Source: Trichodesmium erythraeum IMS101 (GTDB lineage: Bacteria > Cyanobacteriota > Cyanobacteriia > Cyanobacteriales > Microcoleaceae). From it: a stretch of 32,000 nt of DNA. A program made the translations under genes and the position numbers. Positions within the stretch are counted from its first letter, which is position 1. Every line of letters begins with the position of its first letter. Below the pieces are notes generated by a model. It was not told the origin of the DNA and searched no databases. It saw only the letters and a program-made list of their open reading frames with translations. The stretch is taken from assembly GCF_000014265.1 (NCBI RefSeq), contig NC_008312.1, positions 2,910,001 through 2,942,000 of the forward strand. Direction: 5' to 3'. Positions 3,001-31,307 of this stretch are shown in pieces.

Positions 3001-3829
3001 ATTTATAGAAGTCCCTATTATCCCGAGTGCCTTTTTCCTTAAAACCTATCTCGTCCGTAATTACTTTTTTCTTCTTACCTAATGGCCCTAAATTAGTGGC
3101 TCCAGGTGATTTGCTATCGGGGTCTTGGAGTATTTCTTCCGCACTAATACTGAGCTCATATTTAGTTTTCGCGTTCCCTTTGGGGTAAACCCGCAAGAAA
3201 TAAGTACCTTGAGCTAATTCTTGCTCAATGGTTTCTGGTTTCTTACCTTTTTGTGTGGAGTTAAATAAAACAGACTTACCATTTTTATTCCGTAATTCTA
3301 GGTTAGCGTTATCTTTCAGGCCATCTACTACTATGCTGACATCATTCTCTTTACCTTTTAGGTTAAATTTGTAGTAGTCATTTTTGTCTCTGGCCTTACC
3401 AGATTTCATACCTATATTATCATTGTATGTTATGACGTCGTCTCCCACCCGCCCTAAGTTTAGAGCTGTTTTCACATTATTGCCTGGGTCTTTCTTTCTA
3501 GCTTTTCTCTGCTTTATAGTATATGCATTTTTTTCTGGGGGAATATTGGCTTCCTCTGTTGTAAGACCAGTGAGAGGATCTTTACCATCAATGTCCTCTG
3601 GTGTTGAAGCAACAGTTGTTAGGTCTAGCTGAGACGAATTGATGATTTTACTGGGCACTATAATTTGTGGCAGTTGGTTGTCTACCTCGTCCATAGGTAC
3701 TTGTTCCAGCACATCAGGTTCCTGCACAGAATAAACTGGGAACATCATATTAACAGACTGATGTTTTGATTCTAATTCAAATCCTAGTATGTTTTGTGAT
3801 GGTTCTAATCCTATTACTTCTTCTCTCAT
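1..3829 (-). CDS. Large multi-repeat secreted/surface protein, N-terminal ~1276 aa (C-terminus runs off the left window edge): six PPC (bacterial pre-peptidase C-terminal-like) repeats, two CARDB-like modules, then at least two more PPC repeats
   Basis: Absent from the supplied ORF track because no stop lies in the window. Hand translation of the minus strand starts at ATG 3829-3827, with an in-frame stop upstream at 3850-3848. The frame was checked at both ends: MREEVIGLEPSQNILGFELE at the start and SQVQIDLTGLNKNADLYLY at 58-2. No minus-strand ORF fragments are listed here, consistent with one open frame. A ~116-aa unit (~350 bp) recurs with the signature D-x-x-D-[YF]-Y-x-F-x-L ... LDGL-x-x-[DN]-A-[DN]-L-x-L ... 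G-x-x-x-E-I ... L-x-x-G-T-Y-Y-x-x-V, approx 3490-1330 and 560-1. Two modules at approx 1320-590 (VNYQVNNIGNTKADAFEVGFYLSKDEGIDKGDFLLG and KVTLNNAGGKLDDFRVGFYVSEDNEITTSDELLG) look like CARDB. No hydrophobic signal peptide in the first 100 aa. Confidence 0.85.
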   Translation of the reverse strand, partial: MREEVIGLEPSQNILGFELESKHQSVNMMFPVYSVQEPDVLEQVPMDEVDNQLPQIIVPSKIINSSQLDLTTVASTPEDIDGKDPLTGLTTEEANIPPEKNAYTIKQRKARKKDPGNNVKTALNLGRVGDDVITYNDNIGMKSGKARDKNDYYKFNLKGKENDVSIVVDGLKDNANLELRNKNGKSVLFNSTQKGKKPETIEQELAQGTYFLRVYPKGNAKTKYELSISAEEILQDPDSKSPGATNLGPLGKKKKVITDEIGFKEKGTRDNRDFYKFTLTEKLNNLNIVLDGLKDDANIQLLDEDGKTIIDQSRSKGKKKEIIDQILEGGTYYLKVTPTGNARTKYRLSLDGDKIDDPDGTRTRAENLGTLGNKPIKKRDEIGFEVGGKRDQKDYYQFNLNRDSEVNFSLDGLNQNVDLKLLGSKGNLLYSSTNKGKEVEKISTILDKGKYYALVEPMGSDRSEYTLSIDGDSKIQDPDAKLPGKNLGKLKGKTISRIDDIGLKKKGFLDTSDFWRIELTKETDLTITLDRLSQNADLELYDKDGTTLIYSSKEKGKKPEEISSILDKGIYYIKVKSKGGSSSKYKLSVTGNTQIGEKDDALPGTNLGELGNQKIVKKDEIGFESSQNIRDVGDFYNFSLAEQRGVNITLDGLTGDANLFLVGNDGGEIEVSNNKGKRNEIINEILQPGNYYIGVKPNGGKVKTNYNLEVTTNLQKDDFNNRQNAQQLGTLNLQDQVTQNNRVGFKEGSLIDQADFYSFKLTETSDVNLSLDGLDGDANLLLLDNKNTLDESTAKGLKAENIKKKLEAGTYYAAIFPVSGAKTDYELTLGVTQKTVDLSSLKFEALDVQDGLKAGERLKVNYQVNNIGNTKADAFEVGFYLSKDEGIDKGDFLLGTAKVKSLSGDKNTKKLAKQLTLPESGDNFWQGSGDYYLGMMVDVQDAIVENNELNNTGSQRVGVDLSSDLIVSGFDVQEKTVNPGQKFNAKVTLNNAGGKLDDFRVGFYVSEDNEITTSDELLGSKMVTSLGGKKSTTINKQLTLPVASVSGVKKYFIGAIADDQDVLREVNETNNVSKEKVSLSPVPQDNAGNKLNKGRKVGVLGNKTQKFSDWVGDFYGVSEDTHDYYKIELDDRSRLNLNLKGLSANANLYLYDSDGDLLQKSEESENKEEAIDIKLLPGTYYGLVWKDDGGNTNYDLEMSALPLEYPVPQITGWNRNTALNIGAVSATPIAKTEYVGNPHGFVDDLNDFYKFQVEGSGSQVQIDLTGLNKNADLYLY

Positions 3830-4020
3830 AAGAATTATATGATTTATCTATGCATATATATAGTACCACAGACAGCTCAAAAGTAAGCCTACTCTACCCC
3901 CCAACTAAGGAGATTAAAAATAATCCCTAAATTACGTTTTTTCATTTGTCGTCATCCTAATTATAATTTATGTTGCTATATTATGTTATTTAGATATTTT
4001 TTAATACTAACACTTAATTT

Positions 4021-4566: not shown

Positions 4567-4740
4567 CGTAGATATTGGTAAATCATGTTTACTAAAAATT
4601 TTCCCTCTGAAAAACTCATTCAGATATTACTTCCCCCACTAGGGGTGCTCATTTCAGTTATCAGTTATCAAGACTTCTGAAACTAGCATCATGTATTCAA
4701 AAAAAACAAGTAAAAAAATAACCCTAGAAAAGCGAGGCTT

Positions 4741-5225
4741 TTAACGATATGGTCGATGCTGCAAAATCATAATTCACACCAATATCGGCGGATTTAATAT
4801 GAATGAAGTAAGTTCCAGGTTCGTTCATTACAACTAATTTTTTCATTGGCATTACCTCTAGCAAAAGATCCATCTATATATAACTCACTATCCTTGTAAA
4901 AGTTCAAATTATCATTGCCATTCATATTGTCAAACTGAGGTCAACTGTACTTTTAGTTGGTAACATAAACCTGTAAAAATCGTCTTCGTCAAAACTACCT
5001 ACCCACTCAGTCTGATTAAAGTTTGTTAAATTATCAATATCTTTAGCAGCTTTGAAATCATTGCCTGTACTTTCAACTAGTGAAGTTGCAGAGAGTTGTA
5101 AGTCATAGTAGGTATTGCCAGGAGCACCATTAACTATGGCAAAATAAGTTTCGGGTTCTAACTTGGTATTGATTACTTTATCAGTATTATCCGAATTTTT
5201 AGATAAACCTTTAGAAGATATCTGT
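4741..5225 (-). pseudogene. Decayed fragment of a PPC-repeat protein paralog (5'-truncated, at least 2 frameshifts and in-frame stops)
   Basis: Minus-strand translation gives QISSKGLSKNSDNTDKVINTKLEPETYFAIVNGAPGNTYYDLQLSATSLVESTGNDFKAAKDIDNLTNFNQTEWVGSFDEDDFYRFMLPTKSTVDLSL. The PPC pattern then continues only after frame changes (DNMNGNDNLNFYKDSELYIDGSFARGNANEKIS, then VVMNEPGTYFIHIKSADIGVNYDFAASTISL), ending at stop 4741-4743. The upstream end abuts the IS remnant. Confidence 0.6.
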
Positions 5226-5235
5226 AAATAAAACC

Positions 5236-6027
5236 TTAAGCGACAAGACGATTTAACATCAGTGAAATCATGGCTATATAAATAACGTATTCACTTACTT
5301 CCGGTAAACCCTCCTAATCTTTACTGAGTCGTTTGTGGGGTCAAAGCCTACCTAAATTTCTCTCCACCACCCAACCTCAAGGTTCAACCTCAAATTTTTT
5401 TTGAGAACCTTCAAGCACCTCCTGGTGAAGCTCCCATCCATTCGTGACTTGCTGTAACCCCTGGCTTTTATAGCCTCATTCAGCCCAAAGCTTTTGTAGG
5501 CTTGGAACTGACAGGCTATATTCTGCTAGCAACATCTTCCCAGGTGTGACATCTGATATATTAGCAACATGAACTAGCACCACTAATACCAACCCCAATG
5601 TTTATACTAGGATATAGCGTTTCCGACCTTTGACTTTTTTGCCTCCATCAAAGCCCCGCTCTGGTTCTCCTATCTCCGTTGTTTTCACTGATAGCCTATC
5701 AATTATTGCCCTTGTTGGTTCTGGGTTTCGTCCCTATTGTTGGCGGACATGAGTTCATAGGCTAGGGTGAATCAGTTGCCAGACTCCAAGAGTTCTGCCA
5801 TTTTCGGCAAATCACCATACGCAGTCAAAGCCGGTGGGAAATCATGGGGTAAAAGTTCCCAGGTACAACCACTACGACGACTCTAGAGAATACTATTAAC
5901 AACTGCTGGTAACTCCACGGTTTGTTTCCTTCCTCTAGATGTTTCATATTTAGCGACAGGTAGCATGGGATCTATCATTTCCTAAGAGCGATACCTTAAG
6001 TCTGTGGAATAGTTCAGAGCGAGTCAT
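5236..6027 (-). mobile_element. Degraded IS5-family (DDE) transposase gene, i.e. an IS remnant
   Basis: Minus-strand reading from ATG (6027-6025) gives MTRSELFHRLKVS. It continues, through several stops and frameshifts, with IIDRLSVKTTEIGEPERGFDGGKKVKGRKRYIL, LGLVLVVLVHVANISD, WVVERNLGRL, RLSKD and YVIYIAMISLMLNRLVA, then a stop at 5236-5238. This matches the remembered conserved blocks of IS5-family transposases (IIDSQSVKT..RGYDGGKKVKGRKRHILVDT..VVH.AN..D ... RWVVERTF.WL...RRLSKDYE....S...I.LA.I.LMLRRL). The length (~264 codons) is typical. Confidence 0.75.
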
Positions 6028-8579: not shown

Positions 8580-9043
8580 ATGTATAAAAACATTTTAGTT
8601 GCTATTGATACATCTGTTATCGGCGATCGCATGTTTAATATCGCTCTACAATTAGCAAAACTTGGTCACTCAAGTCTTCTGTTAGTTCATATTCTCTCAG
8701 AAGTAGCACAAGAAAGTCCTCTCAGGTTTTGGCCAATGAATATTGGTTATGATCCACAGATCATGAAGGCAGATCATCATCATTGAGAGAAAAACTTGAG
8801 AAAGAATGTTGACAAATGTTGCAATCAAAAGTAAGTAGAGGAAAAGATACTGGTTTTCAAACAGAATTTACTTAGCTAAGAGGCAACCCTGGTCGAGAAA
8901 TTTGTCTAGCCTAAGAATGGAATACTGATTTAATTGTTATAGGATATCGTGGACATTCTATTTTGAGTGCAACTGTATTAGGCGGTGTAAGTAGCTATAT
9001 GATTCACCGTGCTCATTGTTCTGTTCATATTTTACGGGGTTAG
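8580..9043 (+). pseudogene. Universal stress protein (UspA family) gene, disrupted
   Basis: Frame 1 gives MYKNILVAIDTSVIGDRMFNIALQLAKLGHSSLLLVHILSE (the Usp N-terminal motif), then stops at 8784-8786. The Usp C-terminal half continues in another frame: TGFQTEFT*LRGNPGREICLA*EWNTDLIVIGYRGHSILSATVLGGVSSYMIHRAHCSVHILRG*. It has in-frame stops at 8873-8875 and 8912-8914 and a terminal TAG at 9041-9043. Confidence 0.75.
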
Positions 9044-9048
9044 CATTT

Positions 9049-9069
9049 CATTTATCAGTTATCAGTAAG
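9049..9069. repeat. STRR-type heptamer run (CAGTTAT family); related runs at 4655-4670 and, reverse-complemented, at 18027-18047
   Basis: Direct reading: catttat cagttat cagtaag. 4655-4670 reads cagttat cagttat ca. 18027-18047 reads gtaactg ataactg attaata. Confidence 0.55.
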
Positions 9070-9565
9070 TAAAAGTAGTAACTGGTGGCAACTGCTTCTA
9101 AATATGAATATTGGTAAAGCGTTTTGAAGGAAAGCTACTGGTGAAATACTTACTGCCATAGTCACGAGCAAATTTTTGGTTCTTTTCTTACTAATCATAA
9201 ATTTTATCCTATTTATTAAGCTGCTTGAAATTGAAAAACAGTTTACTCTTGGAGGTTTCTTTCCTTGATAGTTATCATTTATGGGATTTGAGGATGAAGA
9301 TAAAAATAATTGTTGGTGGTGGTTATTATTATCGACAAATTTATTTAACCTAGCTATATATATAAAAAGTACATGAATAAGTTATATTAATTAAATGGGA
9401 TATTTAACCTTAATTTTATATTGCCAAAATTCGATTACAAAACAAGATATATATCTTCTAGTTTTGGCGAATTTTTGCAACAGTTAGGAATCCATAATTT
9501 TCTCTGGTAAAACTAACTAAATTACAGTTTTTCTAGTTTTAAGACAATAAATAAGATTAAAAACT

Positions 9566-11767
9566 ATGCCTGAAATTAATGACATCATTAATAATCGCAA
9601 AGCCAACGCTACTACTGCGATAAAAAAGAAGGAAGACTTAGAAGAACTTGAGAGGAAAATTAAGGAGCTTCAGAGGTTAAGACCAGAAATTATTAAAGCA
9701 CCTGGTATTACTTCTGTCGTCTCTGAGCGCTTAGAAAAAGTTGACCTTCAAGGCATCCTTGATATTATTACTCAAGAACGAGAGCTGTGGGGAAGGATTG
9801 AGAAACGCCTGAATAGGGATACTATTAATATTGCTGTTGTGGGTTTAGCACGTCAAGGAAAAAGTACATTTCTACAGCAAATAACTTTGTTGACAGATGC
9901 AGAAATTCCTGCCAGTGATGGTCAACCTTGCACTACTACTCAAAGCAATATTTATCATTCACCAAACGAAAGTTATGGCAGAGTTTATTTTCATTCTAAA
10001 AGTTCTTTTTTGGAAGAAGTAATTATACCTTATTTCAAGAAATTAGGCTTTACAAGTTTCCCTCAAAGAATTGAAGATTTTGGTCGGGCACAACTACCAT
10101 ATTTACGAGAAAATTTTTCTGCTAATGATCAGTCTATTTATAATCATCTAAAAGATGAGTATTACAGACACTTTTCTGACTATTCCCACCTACTAAAAAA
10201 TGAAAAACATGTCCAGAAAATTAGACAAGATGAAATTAAGGAGTATGTTTCTCAAAAGTATGATTTGGCCAGTCAACCAACCCTTTTTCATCACTTAGCT
10301 GTGGAAAAGGTAGAGATTTTTTGCCCATTTCCAAATAGAGGAGTAGAAAAAATTGCTGTAATTGATCTGCCTGGTCTTGGGGATACCCGGCTAGGGGATG
10401 CAGAACGAATGATTAAAGCCCTTGCGGAAGATACTGATTTTATTTTGTTTATTCGCAAGCCGAATGCTACTGGTGATTTCTGGGGACAACGAGATGTTGA
10501 TTTGTATGATGCGGCACATCAAGCTTTGGAAGATAAATTACCTCTGGAACAGTGGTCTTTTATGCTACTTAATTATGATGGAGAAAATGGGAGAGCGTGT
10601 CAAGATTTTCAAAATACGATTAAGTCTAAAGGAATTCATGTTAAGGAAGATCTTCAGTCTAACTGCAAGAATTCAACATCAGCGAAAGAAGTGTTAACAA
10701 AAATACTTACATATTTGGAAAGAAACCTAGTCAGATTAGACAAACAGTATATGTCGTCAACTTATCAACAATCATTTAAGCGCCAACAGCAAGTGAAACT
10801 AGAACTACAAGGACTGGAGCAAGCAATAGCTAGTTATGGGGATATCAATGCTCAGTATGTAGTGCTCAGAGATAAATTTGTGCTTCAACTTTACAATGAT
10901 ATAGAAAAGTTCCGAGAAGAAAAGCGAGAAGAATTGGACACTTCTAACCCAGAATTTAAAGCTGAGGTTGATGCAGCAATTAACCGGTGCCAACAAGAGT
11001 TTAATATTCCTGATTTAGAGCGTTTAAATAGTTGGGCAAGAAAAGATGGAATTAATGCTGTTTATTTTCGAGCTAAACAACAAATGCGTCCGGGAATATT
11101 GAAGAATTTTCACTTAATGGAAACTGGTCTCAAAGCTGCGGTTGATCAGACAAAATTAGAATTAGCAAATATTCTAATTCAACTAGGAATTGGAAATATA
11201 GTGAAAGATAATGGACTGGAGTTTTTCCCTGCTATGGTAGAGATTTTGAACAAAAGTAGTAGTTTGCCGAATCTTAGGTTTGCCTTTGAATTTATTGATT
11301 CTTTTGAAGTTACTTATAAAGGAATTATTCAATACCGAGTTTGGAAGGAGATTGTTGATATTTTACCTCCTAATACCATGACTTTTACTAAGGTATCAGA
11401 TAATATAAATAATGGTGATTTGTCTCCTAATACTATAGATTTTACTAAGGCATCAGATAATATGAATTTGGTTGTTCATGACCTTCAGAAACTCCATCAA
11501 AAAGCGATTGAAGTATGTGAAGAGATTTTAGATGATATAGGAATATACTTTAATAATGGACGAATATCAATGGTAGAAGAATTTGCAGATTACATTACAC
11601 GTGCAGAAGGGGTACAGGGGGAATGGGACATTTTTTTGAGCAATAACCGCAGTAAAGTTTGGCCAGAACTTAAGGAGATGGAAGAACAAGAGCAGTTACG
11701 AAAATATTGGCTGTCTTTAGTTCAAGAAGCACTGGCTATTAATGAACAAATTAAGCTCTCTTTTTGA
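9566..11767 (+). CDS. Dynamin-like GTPase (bacterial dynamin-like protein family), gene A of the four-gene cluster
   Basis: 733-aa ORF with an ATG start. G1/P-loop is INIAVVGLARQGKSTFLQQI (nt ~9836-9880). G3 is VIDLPGLGDT (nt ~10361-10390). These compare with the remembered Nostoc BDLP motifs LGDMKRGKSTFLNAL and DSPGLND. LLNYD sits at the G4 position. The C-terminal ~450 aa is helical and coiled-coil-rich. No hydrophobic TM/paddle segment was seen. Confidence 0.8.
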   Translation: MPEINDIINNRKANATTAIKKKEDLEELERKIKELQRLRPEIIKAPGITSVVSERLEKVDLQGILDIITQERELWGRIEKRLNRDTINIAVVGLARQGKSTFLQQITLLTDAEIPASDGQPCTTTQSNIYHSPNESYGRVYFHSKSSFLEEVIIPYFKKLGFTSFPQRIEDFGRAQLPYLRENFSANDQSIYNHLKDEYYRHFSDYSHLLKNEKHVQKIRQDEIKEYVSQKYDLASQPTLFHHLAVEKVEIFCPFPNRGVEKIAVIDLPGLGDTRLGDAERMIKALAEDTDFILFIRKPNATGDFWGQRDVDLYDAAHQALEDKLPLEQWSFMLLNYDGENGRACQDFQNTIKSKGIHVKEDLQSNCKNSTSAKEVLTKILTYLERNLVRLDKQYMSSTYQQSFKRQQQVKLELQGLEQAIASYGDINAQYVVLRDKFVLQLYNDIEKFREEKREELDTSNPEFKAEVDAAINRCQQEFNIPDLERLNSWARKDGINAVYFRAKQQMRPGILKNFHLMETGLKAAVDQTKLELANILIQLGIGNIVKDNGLEFFPAMVEILNKSSSLPNLRFAFEFIDSFEVTYKGIIQYRVWKEIVDILPPNTMTFTKVSDNINNGDLSPNTIDFTKASDNMNLVVHDLQKLHQKAIEVCEEILDDIGIYFNNGRISMVEEFADYITRAEGVQGEWDIFLSNNRSKVWPELKEMEEQEQLRKYWLSLVQEALAINEQIKLSF

Positions 11768-11835
11768 TAACTCGATTGATTTAAAGTGAGTTAAACTAGG
11801 CAAAATGTTAGCTATAAATTTAGTTGATTAAGCAT

Positions 11836-11873
11836 ATTGAGCAAAGTAACTTAGAACAAGTTATTTGCTCAAT
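11836..11873. other. Long imperfect hairpin in the A-B spacer, flanked by a 14-nt direct repeat
   Basis: attgagcaaa-g-taactt-agaac-aagtta-tttgctcaat: 16 bp of stem with one bulged G and a 5-nt loop. The direct repeat aaaatgttagctat lies at 11802-11815 and 11883-11896. No U-tract follows on either strand. Confidence 0.45.
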
Positions 11874-11965
11874 AAAAATCAAAAAATGTTAGCTATTCGT
11901 TGTTCAGAGAGGATTGCTATATTAACTTGTAGTTAGTCAACCAAACACAGGGGTTATTTATAATC

Positions 11966-13147
11966 ATGGTTCAAGAACAACAACGGCAAAAAAACACAAG
12001 AATTAAACTGGGAATTTGGGGAACTAGCAGTGCAGGAAAAACAGTTTATATGCTCATGCTATATCATTACCTTCAAAGGTCAAAAAGAAAAGACAGGTTC
12101 TTAGTTAAGGCTGGTAATGAACAAACAGACAAGTTTCTGAAAAAACATTTAATTTCAAGGATTTATAAAGGAGAATTTCCAAGCACAACAACAAAGGAAG
12201 ATAAATATAACTCATATTCTTATAAGCTGAAAAGGAATAATAGCGACACAATAGTAGAGTTGACCTTTCTCGATCTCTCAGGAGAAATCTGGAAAAGCAG
12301 AGGATACAAGGTAAAGACAAATAACAAGAAAAACGAGGATGTAAGTGTAGCAAAATACTTGACACAGTGCCATGGAATTTTAATTTTATTGAGTCCCTTA
12401 AAGGAAGACTACCCTCCTAAAAACTCATATTTCTCATTATTAGAAGGCTTATTTAGATTAATGCTAAGAGAAATTCCCGAATCCGAATTCAAACTAGAGC
12501 AATATGTTGTTTTTGGTATAACTAAAGCAGATCACGATGAAATTTACCAGCGGACAATAGACAGGAATTTTTATCAATTGATTATGGAAATTATAGGACC
12601 CCAAGCAAGCCTAGAAGGGCTCGAAAGCTATTTTCATCTAGAAATAGTGGAAGAGAAAGATGGAACAAAGCGAGTGAATGTAAATGGAGAAAATAATCGT
12701 TGCTGTTTTCTTCCTATTTCACCCTTCGCAAAATATTACGATGAAGATGGTGGTAAAATGATATCCCCTGTTATTGAAAATAAAACAGAGGAAGAACCAA
12801 GGGCAAATGAGTCACAGCAGGAGCCGCCAAAAGCTGCTGGTAAGCGACAGGAGAAACAGCGAGAAGACCCTTTTAAAAAAAATCTAGGTAAGAAGCAAAA
12901 GAATAATGATGATTATGAAACACCCAGTACGGCTGACAATTCTGAAGGTGGTCAAAGGGAAGGCCACAGTAGTGACAATGATGACTATGACACACCCAGT
13001 ACAACTAATGATGATGAACCAAATCAAAAACAGGGAAAATACAAGATTGATACACGCGTTGAGTGGAGACCTCAAAATGTAGTTGAGCCTATTGAGTGGT
13101 TGATTCAGCGTATAGAAAATCATCCTCCCAAAATTTTTGATGAATAG
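11966..13147 (+). CDS. P-loop GTPase (Ras-like/TRAFAC class) with an acidic low-complexity tail, gene B of the cluster
   Basis: 393-aa ORF with an ATG start. G1 is KLGIWGTSSAGKTVYM (nt ~12005-12050), G3 is FLDLSGE (nt ~12262-12285) and G4 is GITKADHDE (nt ~12515-12540). The tail (aa ~270-350) is rich in E/K/Q/D and has a duplicated NDDYETPSTADN / NDDYDTPSTTND motif. A ~45-aa non-repetitive C-terminus follows (KYKIDTRVEWRPQNVVEPIEWLIQRIENHPP). Confidence 0.75.
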   Translation: MVQEQQRQKNTRIKLGIWGTSSAGKTVYMLMLYHYLQRSKRKDRFLVKAGNEQTDKFLKKHLISRIYKGEFPSTTTKEDKYNSYSYKLKRNNSDTIVELTFLDLSGEIWKSRGYKVKTNNKKNEDVSVAKYLTQCHGILILLSPLKEDYPPKNSYFSLLEGLFRLMLREIPESEFKLEQYVVFGITKADHDEIYQRTIDRNFYQLIMEIIGPQASLEGLESYFHLEIVEEKDGTKRVNVNGENNRCCFLPISPFAKYYDEDGGKMISPVIENKTEEEPRANESQQEPPKAAGKRQEKQREDPFKKNLGKKQKNNDDYETPSTADNSEGGQREGHSSDNDDYDTPSTTNDDEPNQKQGKYKIDTRVEWRPQNVVEPIEWLIQRIENHPPKIFDE

Positions 13148-13191
13148 CAACAAACAGAGTAACAACAGTTAATCAATTAGGAGAAAAAATT

Positions 13192-16100
13192 ATGCAACAA
13201 CAGCAAGAACTAGAGCAGTTTATTTACGGTAAATTTGTCGGTCCAGAAAGCGGATATTGCATCGTTGCCCATAGTTCTAACTTAGAAGACAAACAGGCTA
13301 TAGAAGAGATAGCCGAGCAAGAATGTCGCTTTTGGCAACAGCCTTCGGATTATAATCTCTGGGGGGTTGGCATTTGTCGAAATAATACTCAGATTTGTCC
13401 GGAACAGGAAATTATATTTATTCAAGAAAGGTCGGCTCAGAATTTGAACAAAAGCTTTGTTTTTAGCGGAAGTCGTAGATTTTATCAGCGACTTTATATT
13501 TTTGCTTCCGAAGCAACAGCGCTGAAATTCAACAAGATCATTTTTCTGTGGCTTACCAAATTTTCCCTCAACAAAGTGCCTACATTTAAAGCACTCAATA
13601 AACCCAATGGTTCCGGTGACTCTGGGTCTTGGTTTTTTCCTCAAAGTGACTTCTCATTAACTGACCAACAGACTGAAAAGGCAAACCCAAAAAAAATCAT
13701 AGCAGATGTTTGGCAGAAACTTAGCAACAATGAACGAAACCTCTGGGTTCAGGCGTTGGATGCAATTATGAGAGGTAAAAAGCTTTTGATTGCGATCGCA
13801 GATAATAAAGATGAAATAAGTAAATTCCTGTCAAAACTGGACAATCTTTTATTACTTTTCATTCCGATGGTTTGGCGAAGTAAACTCTCGATCGCAATGG
13901 GAAAAGACATCGATCTAGAAGTTTGTAAATGGGCAAATATAGTAGTTAGTTTTCAGGAAGAAAAACCGAGCTATTGGACTGATGATTGGGTTTGTCTAGA
14001 TTTAGCATCAACAATAATTACTCCAAATCTAAGTATTGAAAGTGAATACGTTAAAGATTTTATTGAACCACTTAAGGATGATTTTGGAAGTTTAACTATT
14101 CTATGTAAAAAATTTGCTGAAAATGAAAATGTTGGTCTTAAACTGAAGACCACCAACAATCAGAAAAACTCATCAGGATTTAGGCCAGATTCGTCTAATG
14201 TTAGTCTTTTATTACAGGGTAAGCCTTTAGACTTTAGTCATCCATCTGTTGATTTTATAGCTAATTACCCCAAGGACGATACCTATAAAACACAACTATT
14301 TTCCAAATACTTTTTACCCATGAAATCCGAGCTAAAAATCTTTCTTGAGAATGTGGGTAAAGATCAAAAGACAGTGTTAATAATCCTTTGGGAGGCTATC
14401 AAACAAAATTTAACGACTGATGCTGATATAGCGGTCCTCTGTTTGAGTAAAATGTTTGCTTTATTAACTAAAGATGAGTTTTTAAAGCGACTTCAGGAAC
14501 TTAAAGCAGCCGATGTTATGGAGCTAATAAGTCATGGCTTATGGAAAGAAACTCAAAAAAATGTCAATAAAGAAGACTCTTTAGAATTCATAAACAAAGA
14601 ATTACAACTTATTTCCTTAAAATTCATAAAAGAAGAAAGAAAGAGATACAAATACGAAGAATTTAAAAAATTTGTTAGCATTCATTTACAAGAAATATTT
14701 TTCTCAGATGTAGAAAAATTTCAACTATGGGATTCATTTTTAGCTCAGGAAATTGATCGGGAAAAGTTTCTGGATTTGTTTAACGAACAACTTATTCCTT
14801 TAATGCCTAAAATTGACTTAGAAATCTTTGAAAACAGCTATCTAATTAAATACCTAAAATCTTCATTTCCTATTGTATTTTTAGGATTGCAAGATGTTTT
14901 ATCAAATCGAAATTTCTCAAAGCTTTGCCTAGTTTCTAGTGACTTAAAAATAAATAATGCCACAACCAATAAGCTTTACCTAAACTTTTTAGAGTCTCAA
15001 TCACCAACCTATGAAAGTAGCCAGGATTTGTTAATAGATACTATTAATAGGAGTATCGATCTAAAAACAACAGTCCTTAAAATTCAAGATCTTTCTGATG
15101 TTTACCAATGGTTTTATAAGAAGAAACCAGGGTTATTCGATAATTTAAGTAAACTTTATAGCACTAATCCATCATGGTCAGACTGGGAAGAACTTGCATC
15201 TTTTTTGTACCCAGATGATCATAATCAAGAAAATAGGGTTTATTTTCTTGACAAAATAGTTGCTCAAAAATTCACCGCTGAGGTTTTAAAAACTTGGTTC
15301 AACTTATTAAAAAGTGAACCGAATAATCCCAAGATTAAAGAAAGTTTTTTGAATGGAAAAACCTGGAAGAATTTAAGGGACGAAACTATTAAAAATATGT
15401 ACTGTTATCTAACAACTGAGGTCCCAGATTATGTAAGTAAGTTAATACAATGGGCCTCTGAAAAAAGTAGGTTTGATTTGATTAACGGAAAACTCACCGA
15501 ATCTGCCATAGAAATTTGGGAAAATAATAAGACAATTGATCAACAAACTTGGCAAATTTTAATGTTTTCACCAGTACAAGCAAACTTATCCAATGAAAAG
15601 CGTTTTAGAATGAGAATTGCTGATTTATTGTGTGAACCAAATTCACTATCCTTGACAAATAATGTTGAAATTAAAAGCCAAAATATTTCTAAAGAAAGAC
15701 AAAATAAAAGCGAGTCACAGCAAAAAAAACCAAGAGATCTTTTTAAGAAATATACTGCACATAAAACTATTCAGGAAAATGTTTCAAGCACTGATGATCC
15801 TTTAACAAACTCGACATCTACTCAGATGTCTAATAATAACCAAAATGAGGGCAAAGTCAACGAGTCCAGGAGAGACTTGCCACTCTACAATAAAGAACAA
15901 AAAACACTGCATTTATTAACTGAACTTGCTAGAAAAAAAATTAATAAATTCAAGGACGACCCTGAGAAAATTGAAGGTTTTCTTGAGCTTTGTGAAACCT
16001 TTGAAATAAAAATACTGGAAGTTTTAGTGGAAGTGGATTTAAAAAATTGCCCTGGTGTCTTCTTCAAGTATCTGCATAGCAAAAATTATGATAGAAACAG

Positions 16101-16284
16101 CACAGAATATATTCGTTGCTTTGAAAAAATGTTATCTCAAATTCAAAGCAACACTAAAGAGCGAGACAAAATTATCGATTTTGTGAGAGATATAGGAAAG
16201 AATATGATTGGGGAAGGAGACAAAGAGCTTCGGGAGCTAGCTGTTGATTCTCTAGCCTCTTGGGCACGTCAGGGATTGAAGTGA
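13192..16284 (+). CDS. 1030-aa hypothetical protein, predominantly helical, gene C of the cluster (possible GAP1-like GTPase-associated scaffold)
   Basis: Long uninterrupted ORF 44 nt after gene B. It has a good ribosome-binding site (TAGGAGA, 8 nt before the ATG). The N-terminal ~130 aa reads QFIYGKFVGPESGYCIVAHSSNL...WGVGICR...FIQERSAQ...FVFSGSRRFYQRLYIF. The remainder is rich in K/E/N/L/I, with a low-complexity S/N/Q/K segment near aa 830-880. I recognise no enzymatic motif. Confidence 0.8.
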   Translation: MQQQQELEQFIYGKFVGPESGYCIVAHSSNLEDKQAIEEIAEQECRFWQQPSDYNLWGVGICRNNTQICPEQEIIFIQERSAQNLNKSFVFSGSRRFYQRLYIFASEATALKFNKIIFLWLTKFSLNKVPTFKALNKPNGSGDSGSWFFPQSDFSLTDQQTEKANPKKIIADVWQKLSNNERNLWVQALDAIMRGKKLLIAIADNKDEISKFLSKLDNLLLLFIPMVWRSKLSIAMGKDIDLEVCKWANIVVSFQEEKPSYWTDDWVCLDLASTIITPNLSIESEYVKDFIEPLKDDFGSLTILCKKFAENENVGLKLKTTNNQKNSSGFRPDSSNVSLLLQGKPLDFSHPSVDFIANYPKDDTYKTQLFSKYFLPMKSELKIFLENVGKDQKTVLIILWEAIKQNLTTDADIAVLCLSKMFALLTKDEFLKRLQELKAADVMELISHGLWKETQKNVNKEDSLEFINKELQLISLKFIKEERKRYKYEEFKKFVSIHLQEIFFSDVEKFQLWDSFLAQEIDREKFLDLFNEQLIPLMPKIDLEIFENSYLIKYLKSSFPIVFLGLQDVLSNRNFSKLCLVSSDLKINNATTNKLYLNFLESQSPTYESSQDLLIDTINRSIDLKTTVLKIQDLSDVYQWFYKKKPGLFDNLSKLYSTNPSWSDWEELASFLYPDDHNQENRVYFLDKIVAQKFTAEVLKTWFNLLKSEPNNPKIKESFLNGKTWKNLRDETIKNMYCYLTTEVPDYVSKLIQWASEKSRFDLINGKLTESAIEIWENNKTIDQQTWQILMFSPVQANLSNEKRFRMRIADLLCEPNSLSLTNNVEIKSQNISKERQNKSESQQKKPRDLFKKYTAHKTIQENVSSTDDPLTNSTSTQMSNNNQNEGKVNESRRDLPLYNKEQKTLHLLTELARKKINKFKDDPEKIEGFLELCETFEIKILEVLVEVDLKNCPGVFFKYLHSKNYDRNSTEYIRCFEKMLSQIQSNTKERDKIIDFVRDIGKNMIGEGDKELRELAVDSLASWARQGLK

Positions 16285-16395
16285 TTGCTGTCTCACCATT
16301 ATAAGAAGTGTAGCCAACAGGGTAACTAGGCTTTTTGTTCAGCTTTAAGGTAGTGCAAGTTAATAAAAACTTAGTCAAATTGGAGTTTTTTTTAA

Positions 16396-17916
16396 ATGAT
16401 TAATGATAACAGCCAAAATCAGGAAACAAATTTTTGGATATGCAATGGAGAGGAAAAAAACCTGCCTCATCCCCCGCAAATGCTTCATTACGGTGATGAG
16501 TGTCCTATTTGCCACAATGTCAAAAAAATCAAACGGAACCCACCTCCTCCAAACCCAGACACCATTAATATTACTAGACCAACCGATTTTGAAGTACCCC
16601 CAGAGGTCGACACCAATAGTATTAAAGGTACTAGACCAACTGCTTCTCAAGTATCCCCAACAGGACAAAAGTCAAAACGCGACTGGCCTCTTGTTGGGGC
16701 ACTTACGATTTTGAACCTGGGGAGTGCATTTACGACTGTTCGTGGTGCGTCGCAAATTCTCCCGAGTTTTGTCGCTTATCCTATGGGTATTACTATTCAG
16801 GGAGTGCTATTTGCCTTAATTGCTCGTTTATTCCTGAAACACGCCCCCTTAATTAAATGGGTAGTTGTAGGCTGCTTTTCAACTTTTAGCGTTTACACTA
16901 GCTTTTTTGCTTACTATGATTTACTAAATCGAGAGACACGGGAAAAGACTCGTATTGAGCTAGCTAATTCTGGTCATCAAAGCTTAGTAGGAGAATTCTT
17001 TACCCCGATTCAAAATAAAGTTAATTCCTTGGAAAGCGAGATAGGTATTATTAACAAAAAAATAGAGAAAGAAACTCAAGGAGAGAGGGGAGGAAGACCA
17101 AAAGGTTGTGGAAAAGTGTGTCAGCAACTAAAAGAAGAAAGAGAAATACTCGAAGAACAAAAAGCTCAACTTAAACCATTAGTCAACCGCTTACAGCCTT
17201 TATTTAACTACAATGTGGAAGGTAAGTCACCAAAAGAAATTTTTGACACTGACTTCAAAGCTTTATCTAAAGTTGGGGAAAATTGTTTACCAAAAGAGCT
17301 GTTATCACAGCTAGAGATTACTTGTTTGCCCGATCAATATTTGAAGGCTTTAAACCCACAAAATTCTGAAAATTACGAAAGGCTAAGATTGACATACATC
17401 GATCCAGATCTAGAGGTTGATTTTCTTGCGCCCATTCTTAAAGTCATGAAAGGTGAAGGTTCTGCCATAGCATCTGTCATTATGGCTTTGCTAATTGATG
17501 GCTGTATCATTTTGTTAGGAATTGGTGTTGAAATTCGCCCCCAGGTAACTCGTCAACGACAACAAACATTGACCTTGCAAATAAAAGATGGTAAAATTGT
17601 GGAGTTTTTAAACCTGTTACTATCGAAATCAGAAAATGAAACTATTGAAATAGAAAAAAGCGATAACAATAAAGATGAATACCAAAATTTGCTCACTTGG
17701 CTTTCTGTAAACACTCGATGGATTTGGCAAGATGAAGATAAAAGCTGGTACTTTCGATCTTCCAGTAGTAAAGAGAATTTTCAGAAATGGTTGATAAATC
17801 AGATAAATTTGCAAAATCAGGCTCGGGCTAGTACGAATTTATTGGAGTCCTGGAAGAAAAAGCCTCCAGAATATTTTGTGCTTGAGATGCCAATAGTTTC
17901 AAAAGATCAGGATTAA
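16396..17916 (+). CDS. Membrane protein with an N-terminal Cys/His knuckle (zinc-ribbon-like), a Pro-rich linker, 3 TM helices, a coiled coil, a 4th TM helix and a C-terminal soluble domain, gene D of the cluster
   Basis: 506-aa ORF with an ATG start; TGGAG lies 11 nt upstream. The knuckle is WICNGEEKNLPHPPQMLHYGDECPICH (C16, H25, H31, C36, C39, H40), followed by the Pro-rich KRNPPPPNPD. Hydrophobic segments are WPLVGALTILNLGSAFTTV, FVAYPMGITIQGVLFALIARLFL and WVVVGCFSTFSVYTSFFAYY. A heptad-rich stretch follows (NKVNSLESEIGIINKKIEKE...LKEEREILEEQKAQLKPLV), then AIASVIMALLIDGCIILLGIGV (nt ~17458-17525). Confidence 0.8.
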   Translation: MINDNSQNQETNFWICNGEEKNLPHPPQMLHYGDECPICHNVKKIKRNPPPPNPDTINITRPTDFEVPPEVDTNSIKGTRPTASQVSPTGQKSKRDWPLVGALTILNLGSAFTTVRGASQILPSFVAYPMGITIQGVLFALIARLFLKHAPLIKWVVVGCFSTFSVYTSFFAYYDLLNRETREKTRIELANSGHQSLVGEFFTPIQNKVNSLESEIGIINKKIEKETQGERGGRPKGCGKVCQQLKEEREILEEQKAQLKPLVNRLQPLFNYNVEGKSPKEIFDTDFKALSKVGENCLPKELLSQLEITCLPDQYLKALNPQNSENYERLRLTYIDPDLEVDFLAPILKVMKGEGSAIASVIMALLIDGCIILLGIGVEIRPQVTRQRQQTLTLQIKDGKIVEFLNLLLSKSENETIEIEKSDNNKDEYQNLLTWLSVNTRWIWQDEDKSWYFRSSSSKENFQKWLINQINLQNQARASTNLLESWKKKPPEYFVLEMPIVSKDQD

Positions 17917-17956
17917 GTTTGGCAGAGATTGCTTCCTACTTACTAAGGTACACTTG

Positions 17957-17975
17957 TGCGGGCAATATGCCCGCA
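17957..17975. terminator. GC-rich hairpin between the convergent gene D and gyrA (possible bidirectional terminator)
   Basis: tgcgggca-ata-tgcccgca: a perfect 8-bp stem lying 41 nt after the gene D stop and 67 nt after the gyrA stop. No clear U-tract on either strand, hence the low confidence. Confidence 0.35.
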
Positions 17976-18041
17976 ATAGCAAGATAGAAGTTTTAATATC
18001 TGTACCTCATATACTGGAAATTTGCTGTAACTGATAACTGA

Positions 18042-20663
18042 TTAATAACCAACCACTTTAATAATTTTTTCTTTGGCACCCAACTTCAGTAGACGATGGC
18101 CGTGATCATCTTGTTGATCAACTTTTACCCTGTCAGCAATCATTCCAAAAACTCTACCATCAGTTGTCAACACCTGAACCAGAACATTTGAACTACTAGC
18201 AACTATCCCCGCTAAAATATCATCTTGTCTGGTAAACTGAAAAACATTTTGACCAATACCACCACGATTAGCTACTCGCAAAGCAGTAACAGGAATTTGC
18301 TTACCATAACTGTGTTGAGAAACTAACAATAAATTACTTCCTATATCCAAAGTCACACAACCAACTAACTCTTCTTGTTTCCTTAACCTAGTTGCTTGAG
18401 AACCTTGAGCAGCACGCCCCATTAATGGTAATTTTTCGTCATCTATTTGTAATCTTAATAATCGCCCACCAGAAGTAGCCAAAACCACTTGTTCTCCAGT
18501 TTTACCCAAACTAACATAACGTAATTCATCATCTTCTTTAAGCTTAATTACTGTCACTCCACGATTTCTCATATCACTCAAATCAGACAAACATAAACGT
18601 TTAATTTTGCCATTTTGAGTCAACATAATTAAGTCTTTATTCTCCTTAGCTTCATTTAAAATAAATTGACCAATAATAATTTCTTTACGAGCATCAGTAA
18701 TTTCTTTTGTAGCTGATGGGGGTAGTAAAGTTACTAAAGGTACCCCTTTATTTTCATTCCGTATTGTCGAACGGTTAGAAGCAGAAGGAATATTATTGAC
18801 TTTCAAAGGATATGCTTTACCAGTACGAGTTAGTAATACTAAAGTTTTGTCAGTAGTTGCCTCAATTATATTAGTAGTAAAATCCTCACTATTTTCCATA
18901 GTTATATGAGATTTTTTATCAATTTTATACTTCTCAAATCCTTTAGCAGGAATTCGTCTTACATATCCTCGGTGGCTAAATTCTATAACAACTTTTTCTG
19001 TAGGTGGCGGAGCAGCTTCCAAAGTCAAAATTGGCGATTTAACTGTTATATTTTTTGATTTTATTACTCTACCTTTTGTTTTTATATCTATTTCTTTATT
19101 TCCAGCTTCTAGATATTTTTTCTGTTGAGAAATAGATGCAAAATCATCAGCATTTTTTAATTTTATTTGGTCGATAATTCGAGTACGTCTAGGGTCGTTA
19201 TATTTACGCTTTAGGGTTCGCAATTCTTTTTTGAGGGCTTTGAGAAGTTGATGGCGATCGCCTAATAAATTTTCTAGCTCTTGTATTTTTCCCATGAGTT
19301 GCTCATGTTCTTCCTCTAACTTTTGTTTTTCCAAACCAGTTAGTCTTCGCATTGGCATTGCTAGGATAGCATCAGCTTGATTTTCGCTTAAACCCAAACT
19401 TTCTTGGAAGCTAACTTTAGCAGTATTACCATCCGGTGCATTTCTGAGAATATCAATTACTCTATCCAATTCTTTTAGAGCAGTTAGTAAACCTGCAACA
19501 ATGTGACTTCTAGCTTGAGCTATTTGTAGCTCATGGGTATAGTGACGGGTGAGAGTCTCTTCTCTAAAATTGAGAAATTCTTGTAAAAGTGTTCGCAAAG
19601 ATAATTGCTGTGGTTGTCCATTAACCAAAGCTAGCATAATTGCACCAAATTTAGAAAGTAAGTCAGTATTTCGGTAGAGATGGTGAAGTACAACACTAGG
19701 GTCAGCTTCACGTTTTAGCTCAATAACAACTCTAATACCAGAGCGATCGCTCTCATCTCGCAAATCAGCAATACCTTCGATCTTGCCTGCATTAACTAAG
19801 TCTGCTGTTTTTTCTATCCAGCCTGCTTTATTAACTTGGAAAGGTAACTCTGTGACCACAATAGCTGTTTTTGTCCGTCGTCCACGACCTGTAGGCACTT
19901 GCTCAATAGTTGCCACACCCCTCATGGGGATGCTACCTCGACCCTTAGTATAAGTATCAATAATTCCATCTGTGCTAACAATTTCTCCTCCAGTGGGAAA
20001 GTCAGGCCCAGGAATTAATTCAAATAACTTTTGATCAGAAATATTAGGATTGTCAATTAAAGCAATGAGGCCATCTACGACCTCACCTAAATTATGCGGT
20101 GGAACATTAGTTGCCATTCCTACAGCAATTCCAGAAGAACCATTTAGTAATAAAAATGGTAATTGTGCCGGTAATACTTTAGGCTCTTGTTGGGAACCAT
20201 CAAAGTTGTTGGTAAAGTCAACTATAGCTTCACTAATTTGGGTTAATAAACCTTCATTGCCAATTGATGCCAAGCGACTTTCTGTGTAACGCATAGCAGC
20301 GGCAGGGTCATTGTCAATGGAGCCAAAGTTACCGTGGCCATCTAGTAATGGATAACGACTAGAAAAATTTTGAATCATCCGCACCATAGCATCATAAACA
20401 GCCTGGTCGCCGTGGGGATGGTATTTTCCGAGAACGTCACCAACTACTCTGGCGCATTTGCGAAATGGTCTATCTGGAGTGAGACCAAGTTCGTGCATAG
20501 CGTATATTATTCGACGATGAACTGGTTTTTGTCCATCTCTAACATCTGGCAAAGCTCGGCCAACAATCACACTCATGGCATATTCAAGATATGATTGTTG
20601 CATTTCTGTATGGAGTGATGTAGTAATAACTTTTCCGGAAAGTAAATTTAATTTTTTGGCCAT
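18042..20663 (-). CDS. gyrA: DNA gyrase subunit A
   Basis: 873-aa ORF. The N-terminus reads [37 protein letters not shown] and [18 protein letters not shown]. The active-site region is [10 protein letters not shown]. The C-terminal beta-pinwheel repeats are present. Confidence 0.97.
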
Positions 20664-20677
20664 GAGTTAGTATTTTA

Positions 20678-31274: not shown

Positions 31275-31307
31275 GAGAATAACTCCTTTGTTAGACAAAA
31301 ATAGAAT

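Follow-up and report, generated by a model that had tools for sequence, protein, structure and literature searches.

A four-gene cassette of Trichodesmium erythraeum IMS101 joining a DO-family GTPase to a dynamin-like GTPase and a membrane protein: a candidate conflict system of cyanobacteria

A 32,000-nucleotide (nt) stretch of the genome of Trichodesmium erythraeum IMS101, hereafter the window, raises the question of what a cassette of four genes located between glgX and gyrA does for its host. Among the nitrogen fixers of the ocean, Trichodesmium is a major one, and its blooms end in collapse, owing to cell death and possibly to viral lysis; a module for defence or suicide at the membrane would be relevant to this collapse. 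The four open reading frames (ORFs), here called A to D, are all read from the plus strand, as are the domains described below, and occupy positions 9566-11767 (A, 733 amino acids, aa), 11966-13147 (B, 393 aa), 13192-16284 (C, 1030 aa) and 16396-17916 (D, 506 aa), with intergenic gaps of 198, 44 and 111 nt; the ORF listing returned exactly the coordinates that a preliminary description of this DNA had given. The product of D is 100% identical to Tery_1900, and the low GC content and sparse coding of the window follow from its origin in Trichodesmium erythraeum IMS101. The four ORFs are not chance frames, because all of them have conserved homologues and the P-loop motifs are invariant across those.

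As the answer that we favour, at about even confidence, the cassette is a self-contained, horizontally mobile, cyanobacteria-specific and membrane-acting variant of the DO-GTPase conflict systems, i.e., of defence or damage-response systems, a function that we infer from the composition, relatives and surroundings of the four genes. GTPase-centric conflict systems built on a DO-GTPase and a GAP1 protein were described by Kaur, Burroughs, Iyer and Aravind (2020, eLife; PMC7159879), as predictions only, and were found to be 'nearly completely absent in cyanobacteria' (PMC7159879). The class is large and purely predicted, and the cassette would represent a compact four-gene version of it in cyanobacteria. 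What is new is the combination, seen here for the first time, of a DO-GTPase with a dynamin-like GTPase and a DUF4407-related membrane protein, through which DUF4407 and the family of protein C also gain a testable context.

The DO-GTPase B and the large protein C

Judged by its sequence, B is a DO-family GTPase of the TRAFAC clade, with 47.7 bits against the Pfam model DO-GTPase1 and 37.7 bits against DO-GTPase2, the cut-off being 27 in both cases. The preliminary description had read a second TRAFAC GTPase, different from that of A, out of GIWGTSSAGKT, LDLSGE and TKAD, and these motifs are all present in the translation. The GTPase core (aa 15-193; 12008-12544) comprises the P-loop G19-T26 with Lys25, a Walker B motif and T-K-x-D. 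The Walker B motif has the form F-x-D-x-x-G-E, which defines the DO-GTPase family (PMC7159879), with its glutamate at Glu107; this glutamate is kept in eight of nine aligned orthologues. The P-loops of both A and B are intact and conserved in the alignments, so that neither is a degenerate motif. The core of B is followed by a variable, acidic low-complexity linker and then by a peptide that is invariant in the alignment, P-I-E-W-L-I-x-x-I-x-x-H-P-P (13079-13126), which is probably a docking motif. B has no Cys-rich N-terminus and is the sole DO-GTPase in the window. A profile search with B retrieved 101 relatives, every named one of which is cyanobacterial, and added Nodularia, Scytonema, Planktothricoides and further Nostoc strains; classical DO-GTPase systems were absent from these matches, which consist of the cyanobacterial clade and fusion proteins only. 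No relatives of B were present in viral contigs or, in a single-sequence search, among PDB sequences.

Directly 3' of B lies C, a protein of 1030 aa, as had been stated, with a composition led by L, K, S and E. The N-terminal module of about 130 aa once assigned to it did not hold, and about 310 residues in two alpha/beta subdomains took its place in the AlphaFold model (mean predicted local distance difference test score, pLDDT, 80.2). According to this model, C is a tripartite scaffold. The N-module (aa 1-310; 13192-14121) begins with a subdomain in the longin order b-b-a-b-b-b-a-a and continues with an alpha/beta subdomain; a disordered linker then leads to a central all-alpha solenoid (aa 350-815; 14239-15636), whose fold matches in the PDB (Foldseek) are importin-, HEAT- and TPR-like solenoids and designed repeat proteins; a C-terminal helical bundle (aa 898-1029; 15883-16278) follows after an 80-aa disordered linker. 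Mean pairwise identity is highest in the N-module (37%), 26-29% in the solenoid and lowest in the C-terminal bundle (22%). C has no match in Pfam, NCBIfam, PADLOC or PDB sequences, and its model has none among viral structures (Foldseek). The family is also small, with only 97 representatives among 1.84 billion representative proteins in an exhaustive profile search, and a metagenome scan contributed two short contigs only.

The remote relatives of C tie it to B. DO-GTPase domains are present in 7 of 31 of them, and one (P0092, 683 aa) carries the N-module of C at aa 5-292 and a DO-GTPase from aa 318, in a locus that reads DO-GTPase, the fusion of C N-module and DO-GTPase, and full-length C. 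Because its counterparts are fused to a DO-GTPase, the N-module would act on or with the DO-GTPase B, and the fusions strongly suggest that it binds B. In the systems of Kaur et al., the GAP1 gene follows that of the GTPase, and some systems join the two in a fusion (PMC7159879). The GAP1-N1, -N2, -M and -C models of Pfam, however, did not match C at E<=1, and GAP1, GASH and FNIII were not matched in 32 members of the C family at E<=0.01 nor in nine further scans. By these models, C is GAP1-like in position and build and not by detectable sequence.

A further likeness concerns the eukaryotic regulators of small GTPases. In the model of C, the longin order of the N-module is followed by an alpha/beta domain and then by helices, as in a longin-DENN-dDENN module, and a small GTPase lies next to the N-module or is fused with it, as in longin-DENN and MglB-roadblock platforms. 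Solenoids and designed repeats account for all the top Foldseek matches in the PDB except one, DENND10 from the Commander complex (8p0v_M), which has the highest probability listed (0.99) and 348 aligned columns of a 357-residue target, at a weak E of 8.3e-3 and a TM-score of 0.27; no second DENN structure is among the top 50. A longin or DENN sequence signal was detected neither for the C family in Pfam nor for the N-module profile in PDB sequences. Moreover, the partner GTPase B, unlike those of the known platforms, is not Rab-, Arf- or MglA-like, and the longin-DENN-dDENN module was described as confined to eukaryotes in 2012 (Zhang et al., PMC3521125). That the N-terminal 310 residues form a true prokaryotic longin-DENN-type platform, which regulates B and is used for defence, is therefore put forward as a rather doubtful proposal. 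If it were true, multicellular cyanobacteria would possess a bacterial circuit of small GTPase, DENN-like regulator, dynamin and membrane adaptor, the cassette would be a prokaryotic counterpart, possibly a relative, of the logic of eukaryotic membrane-trafficking regulators, and C would bear on the origin of eukaryotic GTPase regulators.

The membrane protein D and the dynamin-like protein A

The layout first proposed for D, with a knuckle, a Pro-rich linker, three helices, a coiled coil, a fourth transmembrane helix and a C-terminal domain, was confirmed by hydropathy and by an AlphaFold model (pLDDT 73.7), which show D as a membrane protein with four helices and a Cys/His knuckle. The knuckle, W-x-C-x-G ... 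H ... [DE]-x-C-x2-4-C in the family alignment (16432-16515), is conserved in all cyanobacterial D proteins and missing from Myxococcota-type ones. The model places a disordered Pro-rich linker at aa 47-94, and the alignment, model and hydropathy place hydrophobic helices 1-3 at aa 97-177 (16684-16926), including the invariant SVYTSFFAYYD. A long helical hairpin or coiled coil (aa 178-352; 16927-17451; alignment and model) leads to transmembrane helix 4 (aa 355-378; 17458-17529), which has the strongest hydropathy peak (2.59) and is a helix from 355 to 385 in the model; a modelled C-terminal alpha/beta domain with conserved W451 and W465 (aa 391-497; 17566-17886) completes the protein. Four cysteines of the hairpin recur in most cyanobacterial members; together with the positive-inside rule, they suggest that the hairpin is possibly extracytoplasmic and both termini cytoplasmic. 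D might then also be a sensor, since its hairpin would lie outside the cytoplasm.

The family of D is less easily named. The D of the window has no match to DUF4407 (Pfam PF14362) at E<=1, and 14 of 21 aligned family members match this model, the best at 4.5e-7; in terms of sequence, D is DUF4407-related by transitivity only. Its model yielded only generic long-helix matches in the PDB, none at E<=1e-3 (Foldseek), a profile search found no relatives among PDB sequences, phage genomes contained no match, and DUF4407 is mentioned only in passing, by three papers of the literature searched. Two kinds of relatives are informative about the knuckle. In Nostoc sp. UHCC 0252, a ParA/MinD-like ATPase is encoded 3' of B-C-D (L020, 13723-14853), and its C-terminus carries the same kind of knuckle as the N-terminus of D (41% identity over 39 aa, blastp E 1e-7); the shared knuckle ties this ATPase gene to the cassette and marks the knuckle as a movable adaptor module. 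In Myxococcota-type contigs (L004, 9022-11332; L024, 6835-9180), relatives of D occur without the knuckle and without A, B and C, and are preceded by a conserved 310-aa protein that has no Pfam match, which suggests that the DUF4407-like protein and the 310-aa protein form a separate two-gene module.

Protein A is classed by its motifs as a soluble dynamin-family large GTPase of a lineage that we call type 1. The dynamin-type motifs noticed initially, VVGLARQGKSTF, IDLPGLGD and LLNYD, all appear in the translation, and Pfam Dynamin_N passes its cut-off of 27 with 38.9 bits over aa 89-298. This GTPase domain (Pfam envelope; 9830-10459) contains the P-loop G93-T101 with Lys99 and DLPGLGDTRLGD, and these two elements (G1 and G3) are invariant across the aligned orthologues. 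Just 3' of the domain, a G4-like motif, N336-x-D338-G339 (10571-10582), is conserved and non-canonical. Beyond the GTPase domain lie about 450 aa of helical sequence, and a hydropathy scan found no hydrophobic or transmembrane segment in A. Solved bacterial dynamin-like proteins were matched neither by A as a single sequence nor by the A-family profile at E<=1 in PDB sequences; the profile gave weak matches only, to IRG GTPases and to the amphipathic repeats of apolipoprotein A-I.

Across related loci, the position of A is filled by two dynamin lineages, whose similarity is limited to the G domain and amounts to only about 21% identity. Type 1 is found in the window, Okeania, Coleofasciculaceae, Stanieria, Chroococcales and a Leptolyngbyales contig, and type 2 in Calothrix, the metagenome contig L030 and Pleurocapsa; B, C and D are clearly orthologous across the loci with either type. 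A third large GTPase of the window (26256-27893, plus strand; 545 aa, MMR_HSR1 and DUF697) lies apart from the cassette, and in another contig of Trichodesmium its gene keeps synteny with gyrA.

Recurrence and probable mobility of the cassette

Related loci were collected by anchoring D in one genome per species, by looking up homologues of C, D and B and by searching a plasmid collection, and all ORFs at these loci were classified with iterated profiles. At least 13 assemblies or contigs, which represent several orders of cyanobacteria, contain A-B-C-D in one order and on one strand, with identities to the window down to about 30% for A and D and down to about 20-35% for B and C, so the four genes, first regarded as one module on the evidence of a single genome, are co-conserved as a block in many cyanobacteria. 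Complete cassettes were found in a relative that is 66-69% identical (L010/L028), in a second lineage of about 40% identity (Trichodesmium MAG_R03, a metagenome-assembled genome, MAG), in Okeania SIO2B3, SIO2C9 and SIO1I7, in Cyanobacteria bacterium P01_H01_bin.35, in a tar-biofilm MAG, in Coleofasciculaceae, in a Chroococcales MAG, in Calothrix FACHB-1219, in metagenome contigs L030-32, which have a type-2 dynamin as in Calothrix, and on plasmid pSTA7437.02 of Stanieria cyanosphaera. No relative found bears the name of a unicellular model or a picocyanobacterium.

The cassette also varies. Okeania SIO2B3 and the tar-biofilm MAG have a second copy of C (A-B-C-C'-D). A is missing from the B-C-D locus of Nostoc UHCC 0252, which is flanked by dapF and EAD8-trypsin genes, and from that of another Okeania; Pleurocapsa PCC 7319 has A-B-C followed by DDE transposases, with D missing; Dapis retains C'-D only; and the copy of Okeania SIO1I7 is decayed, with A split and C' and D fragmentary. 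Across the loci, it is A, B or C that is split, C that is duplicated or D that is lost. Because A belongs to two divergent lineages and is absent from the Nostoc locus, B-C-D is the constant core of the cassette and A a replaceable partner or output. A constant core with variable output is also the pattern of the systems of Kaur et al. (PMC7159879).

Some variants might be taken to mean that two uncoupled modules merely lie side by side, namely a GTPase switch of B and C and a membrane pair of A and D. Metagenomic loci L033 (827-6998), L034 and L035 lack both the dynamin and the membrane protein, and L033 encodes a DO-GTPase of 387 aa, a fusion of C N-module and DO-GTPase of 683 aa and a full-length C of 924 aa, and L034 has, in addition, part of another fusion gene upstream; on a short contig of Leptolyngbyales (L022), D is followed by A with no B or C 5' of D; and the D-like proteins of the Myxococcota type pair with the unrelated 310-aa protein. 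Uncoupled modules are nevertheless very unlikely, given that B and C stand between A and D in the same A-B-C-D order in the at least 13 divergent assemblies or contigs, that B, C and D stay together where A is missing, and that the intergenic gaps are short, with only two plus-strand terminator-like hits inside the cluster, both weak stems of 5-6 bp within ORFs A and C.

The preferred reading, a mobile conflict system, draws on the surroundings of these loci. Neither glgX nor gyrA was found beside the cassette in any of 27 related loci, and the flanks are specific to the genus: ABC transporter genes in Okeania, alaS and dapF in Nostoc, and secA, ribF, surE and pheS or OpuAC and Uma2 in others. 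Several settings are of a type characteristic of mobile DNA or conflict islands. On the Stanieria plasmid, an IS4 transposase and an EAD4-NB-ARC gene are neighbours of the cassette; in Coleofasciculaceae (L007), relaxase and TrwB genes lie upstream, and EAD1-trypsin with EAD1 downstream; the neighbours are CHAT-TPR and CHAT-CHASE2 in Calothrix, and EAD8-trypsin, an EAD8 protein and the ParA-like ATPase in Nostoc. Trypsin or STAND genes bearing EAD1, EAD8 or EAD4 thus adjoin three loci, and none is in the window. L007 also has three additional Dynamin_N genes, for proteins of 644, 810 and 649 aa, and one gene for 352 aa, all on the minus strand (13224-20668) just 3' of the cassette and its EAD1 genes.

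From the same surroundings, it could be argued that the cassette serves a mobile element, in the maintenance of a plasmid or integrative and conjugative element, in entry exclusion or in addiction, and not in host defence. The copy on pSTA7437.02, the relaxase and TrwB coupling-protein genes that adjoin the cassette in Coleofasciculaceae and the Nostoc ParA-like ATPase with the knuckle of D would all fit such a role. It is unlikely all the same, in that most copies are chromosomal and lie between housekeeping genes (secA/ribF/surE/pheS; alaS/dapF; glgX/gyrA), PLSDB types the Stanieria plasmid as non-mobilizable, and neither a B relative in viral contigs nor a D match in phage genomes was found.

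A physiological alternative deserves more weight, as a real though lesser possibility: the cassette might be a membrane-maintenance machine, or one for envelope or thylakoid stress, in the manner of Psp/Vipp1 or DynA, in which D anchors A, and B and C form the regulatory switch. D is an integral membrane protein, DO-GTPases have been linked to psp operons (PMC11237479), and dynamin-like proteins are common in cyanobacteria and linked to membrane dynamics (PMC5827413). PADLOC gave no match, and the cassette is kept at one site in part of Trichodesmium. Against maintenance stand its patchy distribution, with a C family of 97 representatives in 1.84 billion and no names of unicellular models or picocyanobacteria, flanks that differ in every genus, copies on a plasmid or beside conjugation and transposase genes, the frequent decay of copies, and a dynamin that is dispensable or swapped. 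Descriptions of DO-GTPases themselves are confined to predicted settings of conflict or membrane stress (PMC7159879; PMC11237479), and no experimental study of the family was found in the literature searched.

Known systems, a possible mechanism and further features of the window

How closely, then, does the cassette resemble the systems that Kaur et al. predicted? Like them, it has a DO-GTPase with the Walker B glutamate, and directly 3' of it a large tripartite protein, part of which is fused to the GTPase in relatives; its setting is membrane-proximal, with transmembrane components and an element resembling a zinc knuckle or zinc ribbon; several of its copies stand in what may be mobile, variable surroundings, in which EAD, trypsin and STAND proteins occur; and its hosts are mostly multicellular or filamentous. 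The differences are equally specific. This clade is cyanobacterial, and C matches none of the GAP1 models. The window holds one DO-GTPase and not two, although a double-GTPase variant exists in L033-35, and the knuckle is carried by the membrane protein D and not by the GTPase; in the systems of Kaur et al., two paralogous DO-GTPases occur in 38%, and N-terminal zinc ribbons on the GTPase in 60% (PMC7159879). Their third component is a GASH protein in the N1 type or an FNIII-repeat protein in the N2 type (PMC7159879), and neither GASH nor FNIII was matched by Pfam in A-D or among the Pfam-annotated neighbours at related loci. Lastly, the cassette includes, as integral components, a dynamin-like GTPase and a DUF4407-related protein; PMC7159879 uses neither the word dynamin nor the word DUF4407. 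Because C is not recognisably GAP1 and there is no GASH protein, the cassette is not a canonical system of this type. The families guessed beforehand were for the most part right: Dynamin_N for A, DO-GTPase1/2 for B and a DUF4407-related family for D stood.

Two other groups of systems are comparable through A. With bacterial dynamin-like proteins (Nostoc BDLP, DynA, SynDLP, IniA, Cj-DLP1/2), A shares Dynamin_N, about 450 aa of helical sequence and the absence of a transmembrane helix, and by analogy, membrane remodelling or repair, or phage containment of the DynA type, is a plausible output. The family of A, unlike those proteins, has no sequence match to solved ones, its G4 is N-x-D-G, and A is not paired with a second dynamin, its gene instead being grouped with those of a DO-GTPase, a scaffold and a membrane protein. 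With Eleos/LeoABC, the cassette has in common that a candidate operon for defence encodes, next to a dynamin-like GTPase, other partners of GTPase type; B, however, is a DO-GTPase and not LeoB or LeoC, and we know of no counterparts of C and D in Eleos. Searches of Pfam, NCBIfam, which gave nothing useful for A-D, PADLOC and PDB sequences did not assign the four proteins to a housekeeping machine either, in line with their initial description as uncharacterised.

Within the preferred reading, two GTPases and a scaffold would control a membrane effector, as the preliminary description had proposed. C might hold B through its N-module and set the nucleotide state of B, acting as a GTPase-activating protein (GAP)- or guanine nucleotide exchange factor (GEF)-like platform, with the solenoid as sensor or scaffold and the C-terminal bundle as adaptor. 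The C solenoid, or the long helical hairpin of D, would sense an invader or damage to the envelope, upon which B would switch state and relay the signal to D. Located in the cytoplasmic or thylakoid membrane, D could recruit the dynamin-like A, which would oligomerise and remodel the membrane at the expense of GTP. As a result, the lesion might be sealed or contained, as by B. subtilis DynA against phage, or the membrane might collapse in an abortive infection, and we lean towards containment. The phage defence of DynA is reported to need its membrane binding (PMC12998192). In other lineages, the output slot could be filled by the second dynamin lineage, or by the knuckle-bearing ParA-like ATPase together with EAD-trypsin proteins.

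Several points weigh against reading the cassette as such a conflict system. No GAP1 domain was detected, and neither GASH nor FNIII, so that the placement near the systems of Kaur et al. rests on B, the position of the genes and the fusions. PADLOC gave no relevant match for A-D at E<=1, with stray weak matches to mad8, PDC-M08B and Csm2 and none to Leo or Eleos, and Tery_1897-1900 are not named in the literature searched. How an invader or damage is sensed, which way the signal runs and whether it ends in repair or killing are all inferred. A BLAST comparison that looked for a concealed EAD in A-D, as a link to the adjoining EAD-trypsin genes, found none; the neighbouring EAD proteins share the EAD only among themselves and may be mere neighbours in the same island. 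The genes that appear split in MAGs could be assembly or frameshift errors. Finally, part of Trichodesmium keeps the order D, gyrA, response regulator, SLC12 transporter and GTPase, as seen in a metagenomic contig with a D of 86% identity, and this conserved downstream synteny speaks for long residence at the site, not recent mobility; the idea of a recent insertion in Trichodesmium was rejected on this ground.

The borders of the cassette were also much as first described. On the left, a Usp-like (universal stress protein) gene with in-frame stops, a pseudogene at about 8581-9040 (plus strand), lies directly 5' of an AT-rich spacer of about 525 bp (9041-9565, plus strand; GC about 0.32), presumed to be the promoter region of the cassette. 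A promoter scan produced hits no commoner than in shuffled sequence, and no promoter was assigned to the spacer. On the right, the convergent gyrA (18042-20663), whose Pfam annotation is taken from its orthologue, is separated from D by a gap with the GC-rich hairpin GCGGGCA-ATA-TGCCCGC (17957-17975, sequence read), a candidate bidirectional terminator. This hairpin is without the T-run that the terminator scan requires and was not listed by the scan.

Repeats of two kinds touch the cassette. The heptamer tandem TTATCAGTTATCAG occurs at 4658-4671, 9052-9065 and 18031-18044, three copies where none is expected by chance, and could be a dispersed repeat of the short tandemly repeated repetitive (STRR) kind or an old insertion scar. 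The copies at 9052-9065 and 18031-18044 form a 17-nt inverted pair, 94% complementary, which brackets the spacer and the cassette; this pair was considered as the end of the cassette as an element and set aside, as it resembles the dispersed heptamer repeat and is not a proven end. In addition, recent in-frame tandem duplications are present in A (11362-11467), B (12905-13018) and D (16564-16659), with periods of 57, 72 and 57 nt and copies 79-84% identical; they sit in disordered or low-complexity linkers, as shown for B and D and presumed for A.

The remainder of the window contains further features. On the minus strand, a frame without stops (2-3847), at least 1282 aa long, runs off the left end of the window and carries the PPC-like motif DFYKFQVEGSG..., and a second PPC-like fragment lies at 4925-5290 (minus strand); the rest of the region from 3.9 to 6.2 kb has no ORF of at least 50 aa with a start codon. 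Near the right end (29721-31298, minus strand), the C-terminal half of the DNA polymerase III alpha subunit is encoded, with Pfam HHH_6 and an OB fold, and its N-terminus begins with a split-intein C fragment, VKIVSRKLAKTENVYDIGVTKDHNFVLANGLIASN|CFNKSH, of the known cyanobacterial split DnaE intein.

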